Source: Chthonomonadales bacterium | GTDB lineage: Bacteria > Armatimonadota > Chthonomonadetes > Chthonomonadales > CAJBBX01 | NCBI GenBank assembly: GCA_038229495.1 | Contig: JBBROJ010000008.1 | Location: 4,233-68,232, forward strand | Direction: 5' to 3' | DNA: 64,000 nt | Shown here: in pieces, positions 54,337 to 64,000 of the stretch | Position numbering within the stretch: the stretch's first letter is position 1 | Layout: each line of letters starts with the position of its first letter | Program-made: the position numbers and the translations under genes | Notes under the pieces: generated by a model | Seen by the model: only the letters and a program-made list of their open reading frames with translations | Told to the model about the DNA's origin: nothing | The model's database searches: none

Positions 54337-55201
54337 TCAACTGGTATTTGTTCAATTTATGCATCCAGGAGGCGAGCATAAGCCTGATCAGGGAAATCTG
54401 CGTACCTGGAACACGGGTGATCACAAGCGCAAGTTCATGGTAAGCGAGGCCAGCTATCTTGAGGCCGGCACGTTACGGCAAGGCAACGTGCTATTCTGGG
54501 GCGAATGGGAGGCCGAATCGGAAGCTGTCAGCCGATTTGCCAAGCCGTCCGGCAATCTACCGGAATTCGTCTATCGCCCCTTTTGGCGCAAGCCCGTCAG
54601 CTACAATGGGATTCAAAACACCGACCCATTTGTCTTTGGCCATGCAATCTCATACTCGTGCTGCAAGCAATTCACGAAGGTTGGGCCGACTTACCTCCGT
54701 CACCTTTCCAGAGGCTCCGTTGTGTTGTTCGGGTCTCATAAAGCGGGCCAATTCGTCCTGGACACGGTGCTGGTGGTGGATTCCTGGGTGGAGCACGACA
54801 GGGAGCGCTTCTGGTCCGACGTGGCCGACAAATTGCATCCGACTTATCGTGACGTGACATTCGCTCCCATATACGGACCGAAGTCCACATGCGGCAACCA
54901 GGATGAGGGCAGCGCGCTCATAGGAGCATCTTACAGACTGTATTCCGGAGCGACAGTTGAGAATCCCGTTAATGGCATGTTCAGCTTCTTCCCATGTATG
55001 AAAGCGGAATTCGATTCCGGGGGCTTTTCAAGACCGAGTATCAGAATGGCGGAGGTTACGGACGCACTAAAGATGGGTGGCCGCAAGAATATCGTTGAAA
55101 ATACCGACGACATACGATTGTTATGGGACAAGGTGCGCGAGCAGGTCGAGAGCGCGGGGCTGTTGCTGGGCTTTGCTGCCAGCATGCCTCCAGAGCGATG
55201 A
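54329..55201 (+). CDS. Hypothetical protein, Nmad2-like (nucleotide-modification-associated)
   Basis: NTDPFVFG...YSCCKQ....LR.L.RGSVVLFGS....F.LDTV.VV resembles the P..G..T...CK..+R....GD core of Nmad2; 8-bp overlap with the upstream gene. Confidence 0.4.
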   Translation: MHDQLVFVQFMHPGGEHKPDQGNLRTWNTGDHKRKFMVSEASYLEAGTLRQGNVLFWGEWEAESEAVSRFAKPSGNLPEFVYRPFWRKPVSYNGIQNTDPFVFGHAISYSCCKQFTKVGPTYLRHLSRGSVVLFGSHKAGQFVLDTVLVVDSWVEHDRERFWSDVADKLHPTYRDVTFAPIYGPKSTCGNQDEGSALIGASYRLYSGATVENPVNGMFSFFPCMKAEFDSGGFSRPSIRMAEVTDALKMGGRKNIVENTDDIRLLWDKVREQVESAGLLLGFAASMPPER

Positions 55202-55226
55202 GGATGTCTAGATTGAAGAAGCACCA

Positions 55227-55949
55227 ATGACCGAATCGAACGGGAAACGAAGAATCCTTGCCGTGGGCGCGCACCCCGACGACATCGAGATACTCTGCGC
55301 CGGCACGCTCGCGCGATGCCGGGAGCGCGGCGATGAGGTTGTCCTCTGCGTGGCGACAAACGGAAATATGGGCAGCATGACCCACCAGCCGCCGGAGCTG
55401 GCCGCGATTAGGGAATCCGAGGCGCGCATCGCCGCCGCCCATCTCGACGCGGAGCTGATTTGGCTCGGCTATCCGGACGAGTTTATCTATGCGGACCACG
55501 AAACGCGCATGCGCTTCATCGAAATGATCCGGCACGCGCGCCCGGACCTCATACTGACGCACACGCCCAACGACTATCACCAGGACCACCGCACGGTGAG
55601 CGAGCTCGTCTTCGTTTCCTCCTTCATCGGCGCGGTCCCCCACGTGCAGACCGCATCCCCCATGCATCCGCAAATCTGCCCCATCTACTACTTCGACACT
55701 CTGGCGGGCGTGGACTTTCTGCCGACCGAGTATGTGGATATTACGACCACGCTCGAAACCAAGCTATCCATGCTCCAGTGCCACAAGAGCCAACTCGAAT
55801 GGCTGGGCGACTACAACGGTATCGACATCGTGGAGTTTGCAACGACGGTCGCGCGATTCCGGGGCCTGCAATCGGGTGTGCGATATGCGGAAGGGTTTCG
55901 CCGCGCCGAAGCGTGGCCGCGCGTGACCACAGAGCGCCTTCTTCCGTAG
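55227..55949 (+). CDS. PIG-L/LmbE family deacetylase (cytoplasmic)
   Basis: AVGAHPDDIE, TNGNMG, DYHQDH, YAEGF. Confidence 0.9.
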   Translation: MTESNGKRRILAVGAHPDDIEILCAGTLARCRERGDEVVLCVATNGNMGSMTHQPPELAAIRESEARIAAAHLDAELIWLGYPDEFIYADHETRMRFIEMIRHARPDLILTHTPNDYHQDHRTVSELVFVSSFIGAVPHVQTASPMHPQICPIYYFDTLAGVDFLPTEYVDITTTLETKLSMLQCHKSQLEWLGDYNGIDIVEFATTVARFRGLQSGVRYAEGFRRAEAWPRVTTERLLP

Positions 55950-56086
55950 CCCGTGCGACTAAAGTCACGGGCAACATCTCGGCACTCGGACCAGTGGCGT
56001 GCCGAGAACTCTGGCACAAAGTCTCCTAAAGGAGACTGGCGGCTCCACGAATTGTCAGTGGGTTGTGCAGTGTCCTTTAGGACACT
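55946..56086. repeat. REP-like cluster with TAAA-loop hairpins
   Basis: GTAGcccgtg-cgactaaagtc-acgggc (55946-55972); agtctcc-taaa-ggagact (56020-56037) and inverted agtgtcc-ttta-ggacact (56069-56086). Confidence 0.65.
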
Positions 56087-56154
56087 TTGGTGCAGTTGTT
56101 GCAGCGGTTTTAACCGCCCAACCCGCCACCTACAGACCTGAATCGAGAAAAAAT

Positions 56155-56184
56155 TTGACATGCTTGCACGGCGTACGCTATAAT
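56155..56184 (+). promoter_or_regulatory. Sigma70 promoter of the arg leader
   Basis: TTGACA (56155-56160)-N18-TATAAT (56179-56184). Confidence 0.85.
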
Positions 56185-56209
56185 CATCTCACACATAGAG
56201 GATAGACCC

Positions 56210-56296
56210 ATGATCATCGGCGAACCGACAACTGAATACTGTATCCGTCGCCGTCGCGAGCGCAGCAGGAGTTTCGCCCACGACGCGTGCCACTGA
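56210..56296 (+). CDS. Arg-rich leader peptide (28 aa, MIIGEPTTEYCIRRRRERSRSFAHDACH)
   Basis: GAGGA RBS at 56198-56202; four consecutive Arg codons at 56246-56257 plus two more; lies between promoter and terminator upstream of argC. Confidence 0.8.
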   Translation: MIIGEPTTEYCIRRRRERSRSFAHDACH

Positions 56297-56393
56297 TCCA
56301 GTGATCCAGGTCGGGCCGTACCAGCCGTGGGCAACTCGAAGGAGTTTGCTTGCGGCCATTTTGGTTTTAGGGTTTCTGAAATCCTGGCGTACC

Positions 56394-56424
56394 AAAGCCG
56401 CAGGCGAGTCCTGGCGGCTTTTTT
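56394..56424 (+). terminator. Attenuator terminator upstream of argC
   Basis: aaagccgcagg-cgagt-cctggcggc-tttttt; its 5' arm can alternatively pair with 56348-56365. Confidence 0.85.
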
Positions 56425-56503
56425 CATATTTTTTCCCGGCCGATTATCGTTGCAGGTAACGGCTTTCATGCAGGTTCAAGAGTAACAATGGAGTTTGGCG
56501 ACA

Positions 56504-57541
56504 ATGGACACCGCGATTATAGGGGCATCGGGATACGGAGGGGGCGAGCTTCTCCGGTGGCTTTCGTGGCACCCCGAGGCGCGCGTAAAGGTAGCGACCT
56601 CGAACACATATGCCGGGCAGCCGGTCTCCGCGAGCTTTCCTGGGCTGGCGAAGCGGCTCGAGCTGACTTTCTCCGATGGCTCGGACCCTCTGGACGTGAG
56701 TAATTGCGAGGTCGTCTTCCTTGCGAGGGACAACGGCGTCGCCATGAAGGTCGCTCCCGAGCTGCTTGATATGGGGTGCAAGGTCATTGACCTGAGCGCC
56801 GACTTCCGATTCCGCGATCCCGCCGACCACGCCGCGTGGTACAAGACGACCCACGCCGCGCCGGACCTTACCCGCGCTGCGGTCTACGGCTTGCCGGAGC
56901 TTCACCGAGAGGATATTAGGGCGGCTTCGCTCGTAGGCAATCCCGGCTGCTACACCACGACCTCTATCCTGGCGCTCGCTCCACTGGTCGCGCGCAAACT
57001 GATCGACCCACACAGCGTCATCATCGACGGGAAGTCCGGCGTTTCGGGCGCGGGCCGGAGCAAGTTCGGCCTCGACTACCATTTCTCGGAGGTGAACGAG
57101 AGCACGTCGGCGTACAAGGTTGCGGGTACGCACCGGCATACGGGCGAGATAGAACAGGAGCTTTCGGTGCTCGCCGGGCAGCCGCTGAGGGTCTCGTTTA
57201 CGCCGCACCTCGTCCCCATGACGCGGGGAATTCTTGCGACCTGTTACGCCAATCTAACCGGCTCCCACAGCGCGGAGGAGCTTCGCGCAATCTATTGCGA
57301 ATTCTATTCGGACGCGCCGTTCGTCTACATTTCCGACAATCTGCCCGCCACCAAGCACGTCCTCGGCTCCAACATGTGCCACATCGGGCTGGCCGTGGAC
57401 GGGCGCACGAACCGCGTTACGGTCATCTCCGCTACGGACAACCTCGGCAAGGGCATGGCCGGACAGGCGATTCAGAACATGAATCTTATGTGCGGATTCG
57501 ACGAGACCGCCGGTCTGAATGTCCCCGGCCAGTGGCCCTAG
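56504..57541 (+). CDS. argC: N-acetyl-gamma-glutamyl-phosphate reductase
   Basis: IIGASGYGGGEL, VIDLSADFR, YGLPEL, NPGCY, SGVSGAGR, H.H..EIEQEL, PHLVPMTRGI, DNLGKG.AGQAIQNMN. Confidence 0.97.
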   Translation: MDTAIIGASGYGGGELLRWLSWHPEARVKVATSNTYAGQPVSASFPGLAKRLELTFSDGSDPLDVSNCEVVFLARDNGVAMKVAPELLDMGCKVIDLSADFRFRDPADHAAWYKTTHAAPDLTRAAVYGLPELHREDIRAASLVGNPGCYTTTSILALAPLVARKLIDPHSVIIDGKSGVSGAGRSKFGLDYHFSEVNESTSAYKVAGTHRHTGEIEQELSVLAGQPLRVSFTPHLVPMTRGILATCYANLTGSHSAEELRAIYCEFYSDAPFVYISDNLPATKHVLGSNMCHIGLAVDGRTNRVTVISATDNLGKGMAGQAIQNMNLMCGFDETAGLNVPGQWP

Positions 57542-57593
57542 ACAGCCATTCCACTACGGACGATGTGGACACAAGAAAGGATGGAGAGATAGA

Positions 57594-58379
57594 GTGAGCG
57601 GGAAAAGAAAACCCGTAAAATCGTTCAGGCAGGCGCAACTCACAGCGGTAGATAAATGGATACAGTCCGCATTGGACTTTCTCGATGCTGAGGATTTCGA
57701 ATCGGCGGAAGCGGCGGCTCGGCGGGCCATTGGCTACGCAGTTCGGCGATCGGAAGAGCACATTGTGGCAATGCAGCTCCTCGCCAGCGCAACTTCAAAC
57801 CTTGGGAAGCCGGAAGCCGCTCGAGATCTGATATCTGAAGTGCTGGAAATGGCGCCGCTGAATGGAAGCGCGTATTATGATCGGGCCGTCTATCACGCAA
57901 ACCTCGAGCGATTTGGCCAAGCAGCTCGCGATGCGGAGCGGGCTCTGGCGCTCGATCAGCGAGTGGAACTGGTCCAGGAAGTCCAGAAGTTCATCGCCAG
58001 GAATCAGCCTCACGTCGATGCGGAGTGCGTGCTGCGTTCGGAAGAATTCACCCTTGCAAACTTGATTGCACAAGAAGATATGTATGACAAAGCGCTGGCG
58101 GCGAGCAAAGCAAAGCGTTTTTCCGAAGCCGAAGACTTATGGTGCTCCGCTATCGAGATGGGTGACGCAAGAGCGGTTCCGTGGTGCAATCTTGCCGTTG
58201 CTCTCGCGCTGCAGAAACGCCCGAAAGAGGCAGAAATGGCCCTGGAACGTGCAACTGAACTTGAGCCGGATCATCGGGCCGTAAAGCACAATTCGGACTG
58301 CCTCGCTCGCTTGCTCGAACTGTCTCATTTGGAAGTACTGACAGACGAAGTCGTCATGTTTATGAACGAATTTATATAG
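57594..58379 (+). CDS. Tetratricopeptide-repeat protein
   Basis: Several TPR consensus units (AYYDRA..HA.L.RF..A..D.ERALALD; W.NLAVAL..QKR..EA..ALERA.ELEP). Confidence 0.8.
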   Translation: MSGKRKPVKSFRQAQLTAVDKWIQSALDFLDAEDFESAEAAARRAIGYAVRRSEEHIVAMQLLASATSNLGKPEAARDLISEVLEMAPLNGSAYYDRAVYHANLERFGQAARDAERALALDQRVELVQEVQKFIARNQPHVDAECVLRSEEFTLANLIAQEDMYDKALAASKAKRFSEAEDLWCSAIEMGDARAVPWCNLAVALALQKRPKEAEMALERATELEPDHRAVKHNSDCLARLLELSHLEVLTDEVVMFMNEFI

Positions 58380-58419
58380 CATCGACCGTGATCTCTCTAC
58401 GCTTTACCGATGAACAGCA

Positions 58420-58932
58420 ATGAGCGGATTTACAGGGACAATTTTAAGGCAGTTACTGCTGAGGCCGCGCGTTAAACGGGCGACGTGGCCGCAGCTCTGC
58501 GCGGCGGCGATGGCGCTGCACGAGCGATTTGCCGCGATGATCGACGGCGTCACGGAGGCGGGCGCAGCCGTGGAGGGGGATGATGGGTTCTCTCTGCGTT
58601 CCATCTTCTCCCACCTGGCGACGGAGAACCGCCGCACCGCCGCTGTGCTAGACGCCATCCAGCGCGGGATGCCGCCTGGTGCTGTCCCGCCTGTGATTGC
58701 ACGGACTCTGTCCGAGGCGCGGGCGGCCTACGCGGATTCGTGGCGGATGCTCGGCGAGGCGGCCGCCGCGCCCATTGCAAGCCCGGCGACCGTAGAGCAC
58801 GAGATGTTCGGCCCGCTCAGCGCGGCGGAATGGCTGGCGCTGGTCGGCTACCAGCACGAGCTGCACGCCCGGCGTATCGAGCGGATCATGGCGTCGGAAA
58901 AGTACCGAAAAACGCAGGGAGCGGCGTGGTAA
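58420..58932 (+). CDS. DinB/DUF664-like protein
   Basis: SLRSIFSHLA..., H.MFGPLSAAEWL.LV..QHELHARRIERI. Confidence 0.75.
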   Translation: MSGFTGTILRQLLLRPRVKRATWPQLCAAAMALHERFAAMIDGVTEAGAAVEGDDGFSLRSIFSHLATENRRTAAVLDAIQRGMPPGAVPPVIARTLSEARAAYADSWRMLGEAAAAPIASPATVEHEMFGPLSAAEWLALVGYQHELHARRIERIMASEKYRKTQGAAW

Positions 58933-60783: not shown

Positions 60784-61639
60784 GGACGCCGCTCTCCGGG
60801 CGGGCGTCCTCATCGAAGCGCTGCCCTATCTGCGGCAGTTCTACGGAAAGACGCTTGTCGTGAAGTATGGCGGCAATGCTATGATCGACGACACGCTGAA
60901 GGGGCAGGTGATGCAGGACATCGCGCTGCTACACTACGTGGGAATCAGGCCGATTCTGGTACACGGCGGCGGGCCGGAGATCTCGGCGTTGATGAAGCAG
61001 ATGGGTCATGAGCCGACCTTCGTTGGCGGCCTGCGCGTTACGGATGCGGCGACCATGGAGATTGTAGAGATGGCACTGGCGGGCAAGGCCAACAAGGGGA
61101 TTGTGGCGCTGCTGAACCGGCAGGGGGCGAAGGCGGTGGGTCTGAGCGGCAAGGACGCAAACCTCATCGTGGCGCACAAGATGGAGTCGCCGAACGGGGA
61201 CCTTGGATTCGTGGGCGAGATCGAGCAGATCAATGCCGCCCTTCTCAAACTGTTGGCGGACGAGGGCTATATTCCGGTCATCTCGTCGGTGGCGATTGGC
61301 GAGGACGGCGAATCATACAACGTAAACGCCGACCACGCCGCCGGCGCAATCGCGGCGGAGGTGAAGGCCGCGAAGCTGATTATTCTGACGGATGTCGAGG
61401 GACTGTACGCCAACTATCCGGACAAGGATTCGCTCATCTCGGAGATGGACATTGCGCGGGCAAAGGAAATGCTTGCCTCCGGCGCGGCGGAGAAGGGTAT
61501 GATTCCGAAGGTGGAGGCCTGCATCACCGCATTAGAAGGCGGCGTCGAGCGCGCCCACATGATCGATGGCCGCCTTCCCCACGCGATTCTCATCGAGGTC
61601 TTCACCGATACCGGAATCGGGACTATGATTCGGGCATGA
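60719..61639 (+). CDS. argB: Acetylglutamate kinase
   Basis: LIEALPY..QF.GKTLVVKYGGNAM, VHGGGPEI, GLRVTD, GLSGKD, GFVGEI, YNVNAD, LTDV.G, GMIPKV, DGRLPH.ILIE.FTD.GIGT. Confidence 0.97.
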   Translation: MSIRSAEPVRDSHPSSLIPHPSDAALRAGVLIEALPYLRQFYGKTLVVKYGGNAMIDDTLKGQVMQDIALLHYVGIRPILVHGGGPEISALMKQMGHEPTFVGGLRVTDAATMEIVEMALAGKANKGIVALLNRQGAKAVGLSGKDANLIVAHKMESPNGDLGFVGEIEQINAALLKLLADEGYIPVISSVAIGEDGESYNVNADHAAGAIAAEVKAAKLIILTDVEGLYANYPDKDSLISEMDIARAKEMLASGAAEKGMIPKVEACITALEGGVERAHMIDGRLPHAILIEVFTDTGIGTMIRA

Positions 61640-61674
61640 AAAGACGATTAACACTTAACGGGAGGACGATTGCA

Positions 61675-62142
61675 ATGAAGAAGTTTGGGATACTGCTGTG
61701 CTGTATGTTATGCGTAATTCTGATTGCCGGTACGCGGGTCACCGCGCGGGCGGACATCAAGTCCGACATGATCGCTATTATGGACAAGCTAGGAGTGGAC
61801 AAGCCGGGAAATGAGGCGCTGATCGATTGGGATCACCTCGTCATCAACACGCCGCAGACCAAGGGAATGAATCTGAACTCCATGTACAAGTCGATGGATG
61901 CAAAGAACAAAAAGGCCTTCCGCACCAGCTTCCTGAAGTCGTTCGCATCCTCGTTCAAGCAGAGCTCCGGCGGGCACAAATTCTCTGAAACCGCCAAGCT
62001 GAAGGGCGCGATCACAGTCGACGGTAAAGGCGGTCATCCAACGATGACACTTCATCAGAAGCAGACCAAAGGCGACCTGAAGATATTCTATATACGTAAG
62101 GGCAAGCAGCTTCTCTTCCAGGGGATGGAGAGCAAGAGTTAA
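61675..62142 (+). CDS. Exported hypothetical protein
   Basis: GGAGG RBS, signal peptide (MKKFGILLCC...ARA), Lys-rich body. Confidence 0.7.
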   Translation: MKKFGILLCCMLCVILIAGTRVTARADIKSDMIAIMDKLGVDKPGNEALIDWDHLVINTPQTKGMNLNSMYKSMDAKNKKAFRTSFLKSFASSFKQSSGGHKFSETAKLKGAITVDGKGGHPTMTLHQKQTKGDLKIFYIRKGKQLLFQGMESKS

Positions 62143-63675: not shown

Positions 63676-63705
63676 TTCGTCTTTGACGTTTGAGGAGGAT
63701 TGGTT

Positions 63706-64000
63706 ATGTGGCAGCGGTTTTCGGAACGCGCGCGAAAGGTGATTTTCTTCTCTCAGGAAGAAGCTGGACGATTAGGACAAAATTGTGTTTCGACCGAGCA
63801 TTTGCTCCTCGGCCTTTTGCGCGAGAATGACACTGTCGCTGCACGAATTATCGAGAGATTGGGCTTCGACTTAATTCGAATCAGAGGCGAGGTAGATAGG
63901 CGGGCGCCTTGTGGAGAAGAGCGACCGGGACAGGAAATGTGTTTGGTTCCCGATGCCAAGCAGGTTATCGATTTTGCCTACGAGGAAGCTCAACGTATAG
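63706..64000 (+). CDS. Clp N-terminal (Clp_N) domain protein, truncated by window end
   Basis: GAGGAGG RBS; MWQRFSERARKVIFFSQEEA.RLG...V.TEHLLLGLLRE; whether an AAA domain follows cannot be seen. Confidence 0.85.
   Translation, partial: MWQRFSERARKVIFFSQEEAGRLGQNCVSTEHLLLGLLRENDTVAARIIERLGFDLIRIRGEVDRRAPCGEERPGQEMCLVPDAKQVIDFAYEEAQRI

Follow-up and report, generated by a model that had tools for sequence, protein, structure and literature searches.

A candidate ribosome-mediated arginine attenuator upstream of argC in Chthonomonadales

Leader-peptide attenuation has been described for the operons for tryptophan, histidine, leucine, threonine, phenylalanine, and isoleucine/valine synthesis. 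In the trp layout, the regulatory codons lie in the first RNA segment and the stop codon lies just before the second; a terminating ribosome covers the 5' arm of the antiterminator. According to textbook accounts, arginine biosynthesis is under repression by ArgR, with T-boxes (leader RNAs that read tRNA charging) in some Firmicutes. Here we describe a conserved element upstream of argC, the first gene of an arg operon, in a 64,000-nucleotide stretch of DNA from a Chthonomonadales bacterium of the phylum Armatimonadota. (We refer to the whole stretch as the window; coordinates are positions in the window, and the features are on its forward (+) strand unless noted otherwise.) We put a probability of about 0.85 on the reading, from sequence comparisons, that this element attenuates transcription of the arg operon by a ribosome-mediated mechanism (class I, trp/his-type), with a leader of Arg codons and read-through when arginine is short.

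The trpL and hisL leaders of Escherichia coli and Salmonella, along with leuL, thrL, pheL, and ilvL, resemble the argC leader in having a short translated ORF (open reading frame) with a run of codons for the end product and in having overlapping hairpins that end with an intrinsic terminator. The argC leader differs from this type in its amino acid (arginine) and its phylum, and it has no sequence or Rfam relationship to these leaders. Furthermore, most copies of the argC leader have two tandem terminators, and a second antiterminator couples the second terminator to the state of the first. In this unusual design, one antiterminator would disable the first terminator and free the strand that disables the second.

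In fungi, the upstream ORF of arg-2/CPA1 encodes a peptide that acts jointly with free arginine to stall the ribosome at the stop codon; this ORF has no run of Arg codons, and it acts on translation, in eukaryotes. This arginine attenuator peptide is likewise encoded by an upstream ORF that controls an arginine-biosynthesis gene, but the argC leader conserves a run of Arg codons instead and its output would be transcription termination. The nearest Arg-codon sensor that we found is the leader orf34 of speF in Salmonella, in which consecutive Arg codons report the arginine supply via the speed of the ribosome and alternative folds of the mRNA (PMC6386406). However, orf34 has two Arg codons and controls a polyamine gene, rather than arginine biosynthesis, by Rho-dependent termination, access to the ribosome binding site, and decay by RNase G (PMC6386406). 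It does not act through an intrinsic terminator, and its sequence is unrelated to that of the argC leader. T-boxes are named as the RNA-level control that is known for arginine genes (PMC1262725), and another article (PMC2965389) does not mention arginine. Our literature search found no Arg leader-peptide attenuator of arginine biosynthesis genes, although such an absence does not prove that none was ever described. Relative to the literature that we searched, the element is a new, arginine-specific form of classical attenuation.

The leader, its Arg codons, and its relatives

The region upstream of argC has the parts of a classical attenuator: a leader ORF with a start codon and a ribosome binding site, a run of cognate codons, a terminator before the first gene, and an antiterminator that shares a strand with the terminator. 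The sigma-70-type promoter (56155-56184) consists of TTGACA (56155-56160), an 18-nt spacer, and TATAAT (56179-56184), and it matches the consensus at 12 of 12 positions; transcription would start at about 56191. A Shine-Dalgarno sequence, GAGGA (56198-56202), is 7 nt 5' of the ATG (56210) of a 28-codon ORF (56210-56296) that encodes MIIGEPTTEYCIRRRRERSRSFAHDACH. An earlier note on this DNA, made from the sequence alone, had named the promoter, the GAGGA, and the Arg-rich ORF, and all three are where it had placed them. TTGACA and either TATAAT or TATACT are retained in the leaders of relatives, and most of the homologous ORFs are preceded by Shine-Dalgarno-like motifs.

The candidate regulatory codons (56246-56269) are CGT CGC CGT CGC (56246-56257), a GAG, CGC (56261-56263), an AGC, and AGG (56267-56269). 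Thus, six of the eight codons of the run are for Arg and four of these are consecutive. (The run is also segment 0, the 5' arm of a hairpin within the ORF.) In a scan of the 5.1 Mb genome that includes the window (G000, 235 contigs), the argC leader was the sole clean case in which a terminator follows a short ORF with an Arg run; the six other candidates with an Arg run and a terminator all look like chance.

A BLAST-type search of relatives matched two separate pieces of the element: the run of Arg codons and the terminator. We built a first covariance model from six leaders and a second from 28 leaders. Only a few candidates per genome were scored, so the counts of genomes with the element are lower bounds. 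By the first model, the element is present in at least 10 of the 24 genomes of the window's family and in at least 29 of the 68 genomes of Chthonomonadales, which is the only order of its class; five more from the second model bring the order to 34. In a sample of 401 genomes from the phylum, the second model also found the element in at least 10 genomes of a Capsulimonadaceae-type genus. The element is present in one further family, f11, as well, where a diverged copy (MLNIARSIRLRRPRILRVVDGMPV) is likewise 5' of argC. We also scanned named genomes with a DNA pattern and obtained at least 120 matches, but the covariance model confirmed just two of the first 80, and the pattern matches are mostly chance hits in GC-rich bacteria. 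The two confirmed matches are a contig of an "uncultured Chthonomonas sp.," which is identical to a relative that was already in the set, and a Capsulimonadaceae chromosome. These two place the element in Armatimonadota, which would make Chthonomonadales the order of the window. Altogether, the element recurs at 36 related loci, which argues that it is more than chance. An argC N-terminal motif lies downstream of 32 of the 36 leaders, and three of the four exceptions end at the end of a contig.

Across the 36 leaders, the frame through the Arg run is always open. (One copy is cut off at the end of a contig and hence has no start codon.) The ORFs are mostly of 14-30 codons, with an N-terminal part that varies in sequence and in length and, for several, an uncertain start codon. 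What is kept is a run of 3-4 consecutive Arg codons plus more, with the consensus x(n)-[NS]-RRR(R)-E-R. The codons themselves vary among the synonymous CGT, CGC, CGA, CGG, AGG, and AGA. Leaders with three or four Arg codons differ by 3-nt gaps, and the insertions and deletions within the run are multiples of three. The open frame, the synonymous codons, the 3-nt indels, and the variable N-termini are signs that the leader ORF is translated. The residues AHD, which follow the run in the window's family, are not translated in genome G005 or in any leader of family f3, as the stop codon there lies before or on the sequence GCCCACG. This implies that GCCCACG is conserved as RNA and not as a feature of the peptide.

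In Capsulimonadaceae-type leaders (L062:4662-4849, on the minus strand, and L039, L041, and L043), the ATG is about 9 nt after a TATACT -10 box and has no Shine-Dalgarno sequence. Judging from this spacing, these leader peptides are probably translated from a leaderless or nearly leaderless mRNA, which would be another difference from trpL-type leaders.

Alternative helices and tandem terminators

RNAalifold on six leaders gave three hairpins, which we label as parts of a chain of segments, 0:1 / 1:2 / 2:3 (terminator T1) / 3:4 / 4:5 (terminator T2). Hairpin 0:1 pairs the Arg run with the GCCCACGACG region; 2:3 pairs CCGTGGGC with GCTTGCGG and has a small covarying apical stem; and 4:5 is the terminator. 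Two pairs of helices are mutually exclusive as they share strands: 1:2 with 2:3, and 3:4 with 4:5. The earlier note had described 1:2, 3:4, and the terminator, but it overlooked the best-supported hairpin (56324-56356, CCGTGGGC...GCTTGCGG) and the hairpin within the ORF.

Within the window, hairpin 0:1 (56247-56293, -18.9 kcal/mol) lies inside the ORF and pairs the Arg run with CGCCCACGACGCGTGCC (56271-56293). Segment 1, GCCCACG (56276-56282), pairs with segment 2, CGTGGGC (56326-56332), to form the putative antiterminator 1, and in this genome the helix is lengthened by the pairing of 56269-56273 with 56333-56337. Hairpin 2:3 (56324-56368, -20 kcal/mol) is GCCGTGGGC-AACTCGAAGGAGTTT-GCTTGCGGC followed by CATTTTGGTTTT; it would be the weaker, first terminator. 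The putative antiterminator 2 (3:4, 56348-56405) pairs GCTTGCGGC (56348-56356) with GCCGCAGGC (56397-56405). In this genome, 3:4 is extended by TTTGGT (56360-56365) with ACCAAA (56391-56396) and encloses a genome-specific hairpin (56369-56385). The terminator T2 (56397-56424) is GCCGCAGG-CGAGT-CCTGGCGGC, a bulged hairpin (56397-56418) followed by T6 (56419-56424). An automated terminator scan made no call for T2, because its hairpin is bulged. The core of 1:2, the GCTTGCGGC:GCCGCAGGC pairing, and the terminator with its six T's are all as the earlier note had described them.

We counted base pairs in an alignment of the 36 leaders, which also has one spurious row. For the whole off-state structure (0:1, 2:3, and 4:5), 89.5% of cells are paired and 20 pairs changed on both sides, counted on an alignment that was fitted to that same structure. 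The best-supported helix is 2:3 (56324-56356), paired in 94.7% of cells and with changes on both sides at 7 pairs, followed by T2 (91.9%, 6 pairs) and 0:1 (82.7%, 7 pairs, again on the fitted alignment). None of 500 shuffles reached the observed off-state values, and sliding the partners by 1-3 columns reduced the pairing to 33-47%.

The alternative helices are also kept. GCCCACG and CGTGGGC are paired in 96% of cells. At the one variable pair of this helix, we saw A-U in 21 leaders, G-U in 9, G-C in 6, and no unpaired case; the six G-C cases are spread over five genera of two families. Pairing with segment 3 is likewise kept at this U/C column of segment 2 (U-G 17, U-A 14, C-G 6). A column that keeps its pairing with both segments is what one expects of a strand that has two partners. 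For 3:4, 84% of cells are paired, with little variation. Changes on both sides thus support 2:3 and 4:5, and covariation supports 1:2 and 3:4 modestly. The extensions that the earlier note had added to 1:2 (CGCAGCAG:TTGCTTGCG and GAGTT:AACTC) did not stand up: across the family, just 56.9% of their cells are paired, and 314 of 500 shuffles reach this value.

Hairpin 2:3 is followed by a U-rich stretch in most relatives (30 of 36 leaders have at least 5 T's in the 9 nt that follow, and 23 of 36 have at least 6), so it looks like a terminator itself. This tail is strong in family f3 and in Capsulimonadaceae and weaker in the window's family (in the window, it is CATTTTGGTTTT). T2 is followed by at least 5 T's in 31 of 36 leaders. 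Genus g25 (G063 and G032) has no T2, and the element there comprises the leader, CCCACG, and a terminator, GAGCCGTGGGT...ACCCATGGCTC-T5. There, 1:2 stands only against the terminator 2:3, so in this genus it can only be an antiterminator.

Sequence conservation of segments 1-5 is high in two classes of the phylum, and this could mean that the ORF is incidental and that arginine is sensed by the conserved RNA, as a riboswitch, or by a protein that binds it, and that this decides between the hairpins. We know of no natural arginine riboswitch, so a database search cannot dismiss this explanation. We nevertheless consider it highly improbable. Beyond the mutually exclusive helices there is no conserved structured aptamer, and the loops and spacers vary; yet the frame, the start codon, the 3-nt steps of the indels, and the stop codon's position are all conserved. 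The conservation of the segments can be explained by each of them having two partners.

Alternatively, a strong promoter, a short ORF, and terminators could stand alone as an independent small gene, for a small protein or a small RNA, with two constitutive terminators and no relation to the expression of argC. This strikes us as extremely improbable. The TTGACA/TATAAT promoter is the only promoter-like site that we found in 55500-57000, and none lies between T2 and the start of argC at 56504; in many relatives, the gap between T2 and argC is too short for a promoter (often about 10-55 nt). The linkage to argC in 32 of the 36 leaders and the overlap of the alternative helices with both terminators also argue against a free-standing gene and fit an attenuator of the arg operon.

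In five loci, the stretch between T2 and argC has either short tandem repeats with units of about 7 nt (GATTTTC, TTCAGGC/TTCAGGT, CAGGATT) or longer inserts that are rich in repeats: L010 (genome G001), L013 (G005), L027 (G055), L032 (G054), and L195 (G058). Such inserts between the attenuator and argC put argC up to about 870 nt away. The copy in L032 (L032:1501-1613) retains the Arg leader and T2 but not segments 2 and 3, and it may have decayed or been rewired.

Ribosome position and the choice between folds

The earlier note and our analysis agree on the kind of element, a ribosome-mediated Arg-codon attenuator with read-through upon shortage, and the comparisons above strongly support it. 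They differ on the wiring. In the wiring first proposed, 1:2 together with CGCAGCAG:TTGCTTGCG acts as a protector and keeps segment 3 sequestered. Masking of segment 1 by the stalled ribosome then sets segment 3 free to form the antiterminator, and termination comes from release of the ribosome and refolding of 1:2. These pairings do exist in the window, a stall at the sixth Arg codon (AGG, 56267) would put the ribosome over part of GCCCACG, and either wiring ends in read-through under a stall.

The distances in the 36 leaders point the other way. The core Arg run starts 24-36 nt 5' of GCCCACG, and for 31 of the 36 leaders this distance is 26-30 nt. The final Arg codon of the core is 14 nt 5' of segment 1 in the majority of family f3 leaders; overall, the core run is 14-30 nt 5' of that segment. 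If we assume that a ribosome covers about 12 nt past the first base of the A-site codon, then GCCCACG stays clear of a ribosome that stalls at any codon of the core run. The stop codons fall into two classes: at +2 to +5 as counted from the start of segment 1, where GCCCACG begins with the G of TAG, or, as in the window, 15-19 nt after the start of segment 1. A terminating ribosome covers all of GCCCACG in the first class and only its 3' part in the second. The spacing of the Arg run and the stop codon's position imply that 1:2 is antiterminating and competes with hairpin 2:3, which is the opposite of a protector that is masked by the stalled ribosome. The layout of family f3 maps one-to-one onto segments 1-4 of trp.

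This geometry, with the stop codon on segment 1 in family f3 and G005, makes the protector wiring unlikely. It also depends on the extensions that pair no better than shuffled controls, it leaves out the strongly covarying hairpin 2:3 with its U-rich tail, and in the g25 variant 1:2 can act only against the terminator. Furthermore, a feature that the earlier note had found atypical, a leader stop codon about 50 nt 5' of its segment 2, ceases to be odd under the corrected wiring. That wiring, the tandem-terminator chain 0:1 / 1:2 / 2:3 / 3:4 / 4:5, is probably the right one in its details.

From the positions of the ribosome and the pairings, and following the general model of leader-peptide attenuation (PMC1183508), we infer the stalling, its timing, and the response to arginine as follows. 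Transcription would start at about 56191 and the 28-codon leader would be translated. When charged Arg-tRNA is scarce, the ribosome would stall on CGT-CGC-CGT-CGC-GAG-CGC (56246-56263), with its leading edge ending short of GCCCACG (56276-56282). GCCCACG could then pair with CGTGGGC (56326-56332) once the polymerase has made that segment, which would block hairpin 2:3 (T1). This would leave GCTTGCGGC (56348-56356) free to pair with GCCGCAGGC (56397-56405), which would block T2 (56397-56424). With both terminators blocked, RNA polymerase would continue through argC and the other genes of the arg operon. With ample Arg-tRNA, the ribosome would reach the stop codon and cover GCCCACG, 2:3 and 4:5 would form, and transcription would end. 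If the leader is not translated, then the ORF-internal hairpin 0:1 would sequester GCCCACG, with the same outcome, termination.

Whether the stall and stop positions select different folds can be judged from these distances and from folding energies. With the RNA of the window free from 56259-56274 onwards and transcribed to 56342, 1:2 is the minimum-free-energy structure (-29 to -24.6 kcal/mol). At the T2 decision under a stall, 1:2 with 3:4 has -66.7 kcal/mol versus -58.7 kcal/mol for 2:3 with 4:5, and overall a stall favours the ON state over the OFF state by 6-8 kcal/mol. At the T1 decision in the window, 2:3 is slightly more stable than 1:2. The distances and the folds of the window thus support the selection, whereas the equilibrium simulation of the 36 leaders was mixed.

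Several observations weigh against the attenuator as we propose it. First, in the window, 3:4 is still the minimum-free-energy structure without a stall (-88.2 versus -84.2 kcal/mol) and again with the ribosome at the stop codon (-69.9 versus -66.9 kcal/mol). When partition functions were computed at equilibrium with the ribosome's footprint masked, only about half of the 36 leaders showed the expected switch. The idea that folding with a masked ribosome would display the switch was therefore borne out for 1:2 in the stalled state of the window but not for 3:4, and a mechanism of this kind would have to rest on the order of folding, as other attenuators do, and is presumably kinetic. Second, 1:2 and 3:4 vary little, and their support from covariation is modest as a result; the off-state pair counts, for their part, carry the fit of the alignment to that structure. 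Third, hairpin 0:1 is predicted mainly in the window's family (f1) and is not predicted in most family f3 leaders. Fourth, in 14 of the 24 genomes of the window's family, argC is behind a short plain leader without the element, which would imply that it was lost or replaced repeatedly. Finally, a search for RNA-seq found that the only runs that hold the locus are from DNA metagenomes, with DNA-like contigs and flat depth. Taking these points together with the evidence from the leaders, an arginine-keyed, ribosome-mediated attenuator with the proposed switch is, we believe, very probably the best explanation as a whole.

The conservation of RRR(R)-E-R at the amino-acid level raises another explanation, in which the nascent peptide is the sensor: RRR(R)ER would arrest the ribosome on free arginine, as in the fungal arginine attenuator peptide or TnaC, and hold it over segment 1, with termination at high arginine. 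Runs of positively charged residues do slow ribosomes. Still, the Arg run alone is conserved: the C-terminal residues differ between families, with AHD untranslated in G005 and family f3, and the diverged leader of G290 has scattered Arg codons and no RRR(R)ER motif. These features, along with the leaders described next, in which Trp codons lie on a similar scaffold before trp genes, fit the sensing of codons, and we regard a peptide sensor as quite improbable.

Trp-codon relatives, ArgR, and the arg operon

The covariance model of the argC leader also matched leaders with Trp codons, with E values of about 1e-6 to 1e-4, in other families of Armatimonadota. Those upstream of trpS (L042:1462-1542, L045:1451-1531, and L044:1385-1528) include MRKEIENYVIWAWRWTYAACPFAKLD and ...KTKWVWRG..., and one upstream of trpE (L194, minus strand) has ...NSKWAWRN...; the motifs are ..IWAWRW.., ..KWVWR.., and ..KWAWR... 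In each, a hairpin similar to segments 2/3, with a U-run, precedes a second terminator; these leaders may share their scaffold with the Arg leader. The identity of the regulatory codons tracks the operon, which argues for codon sensing.

ArgR (TIGR01529) had no match in G000 or in 67 of the 68 genomes of the order, while a control search matched 9 of 14 named genomes; the genome with the single match in the order is only 70% complete. Control by an ArgR operator thus finds no support in G000 from the repressor gene alone, as TIGR01529 is absent there; ARG boxes were not searched. We also compared 55000-57500 to Rfam with cmscan, at E values up to 10, and the only match was a chance one to a sodium riboswitch model, elsewhere in the stretch. 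The argC leader matched neither the T-box family (RF00230, with its specifier loop, T-box sequence, and Stem I architecture) nor the leader families (Trp_leader, His_leader, Leu_leader, Thr_leader, and others), which implies that it is neither a T-box nor a member of a known leader family. ArgR/AhrC and the arg T-boxes of Firmicutes act on the same pathway with the same physiological logic, and a T-box likewise reads the charging of tRNA-Arg, but ArgR is absent from nearly all of this order and the leader has no T-box match. A well-conserved and anatomically complete arginine version of attenuation would thus be found in a poorly studied phylum, in an order whose members lack ArgR. The element could also be a compact arginine-responsive part for synthetic biology.

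More tentatively, a single modular attenuator chassis might serve the Armatimonadota: it would combine a leader ORF with an antiterminator (CCCRCG/CGYGGG) and two tandem terminators that are coupled, and the codons would have been exchanged between operons (Arg for argC; Trp for trpE and trpS). In the Chthonomonadales, which lack ArgR, control of the whole arg pathway by arginine might even depend mainly or solely on this device. We offer this as a doubtful extension of the argument.

The first gene of the operon, argC (56504-57541), was identified by TIGR01850 (E = 1e-128). It is followed in the window by a gene for a TPR-repeat protein, an ORF without a family match, argJ, argB, another ORF without a family match, and argD. 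The operon extends past the window on the same contig, with a gene for a 498-amino-acid protein and then argG. We take the 498-amino-acid protein to be a Clp_N-like repeat N-terminus fused to an ornithine carbamoyltransferase (argF); both it and argG were recognised by eye. The gene for this presumed fusion occupies 63700-64000 of the window and continues to C8:69428 on the contig. The TPR-repeat protein and the two ORFs without family matches lie among the arg genes at 57519-58932 and 61636-62142.

Finally, upstream of the promoter, between it and a deacetylase-like gene, the window has short hairpins with 4-nt A/T loops (55950-56130), such as AGTCTCC-TAAA-GGAGACT, GTGTCC-TTTA-GGACAC, and GCGGTT-TTAA-CCGC.

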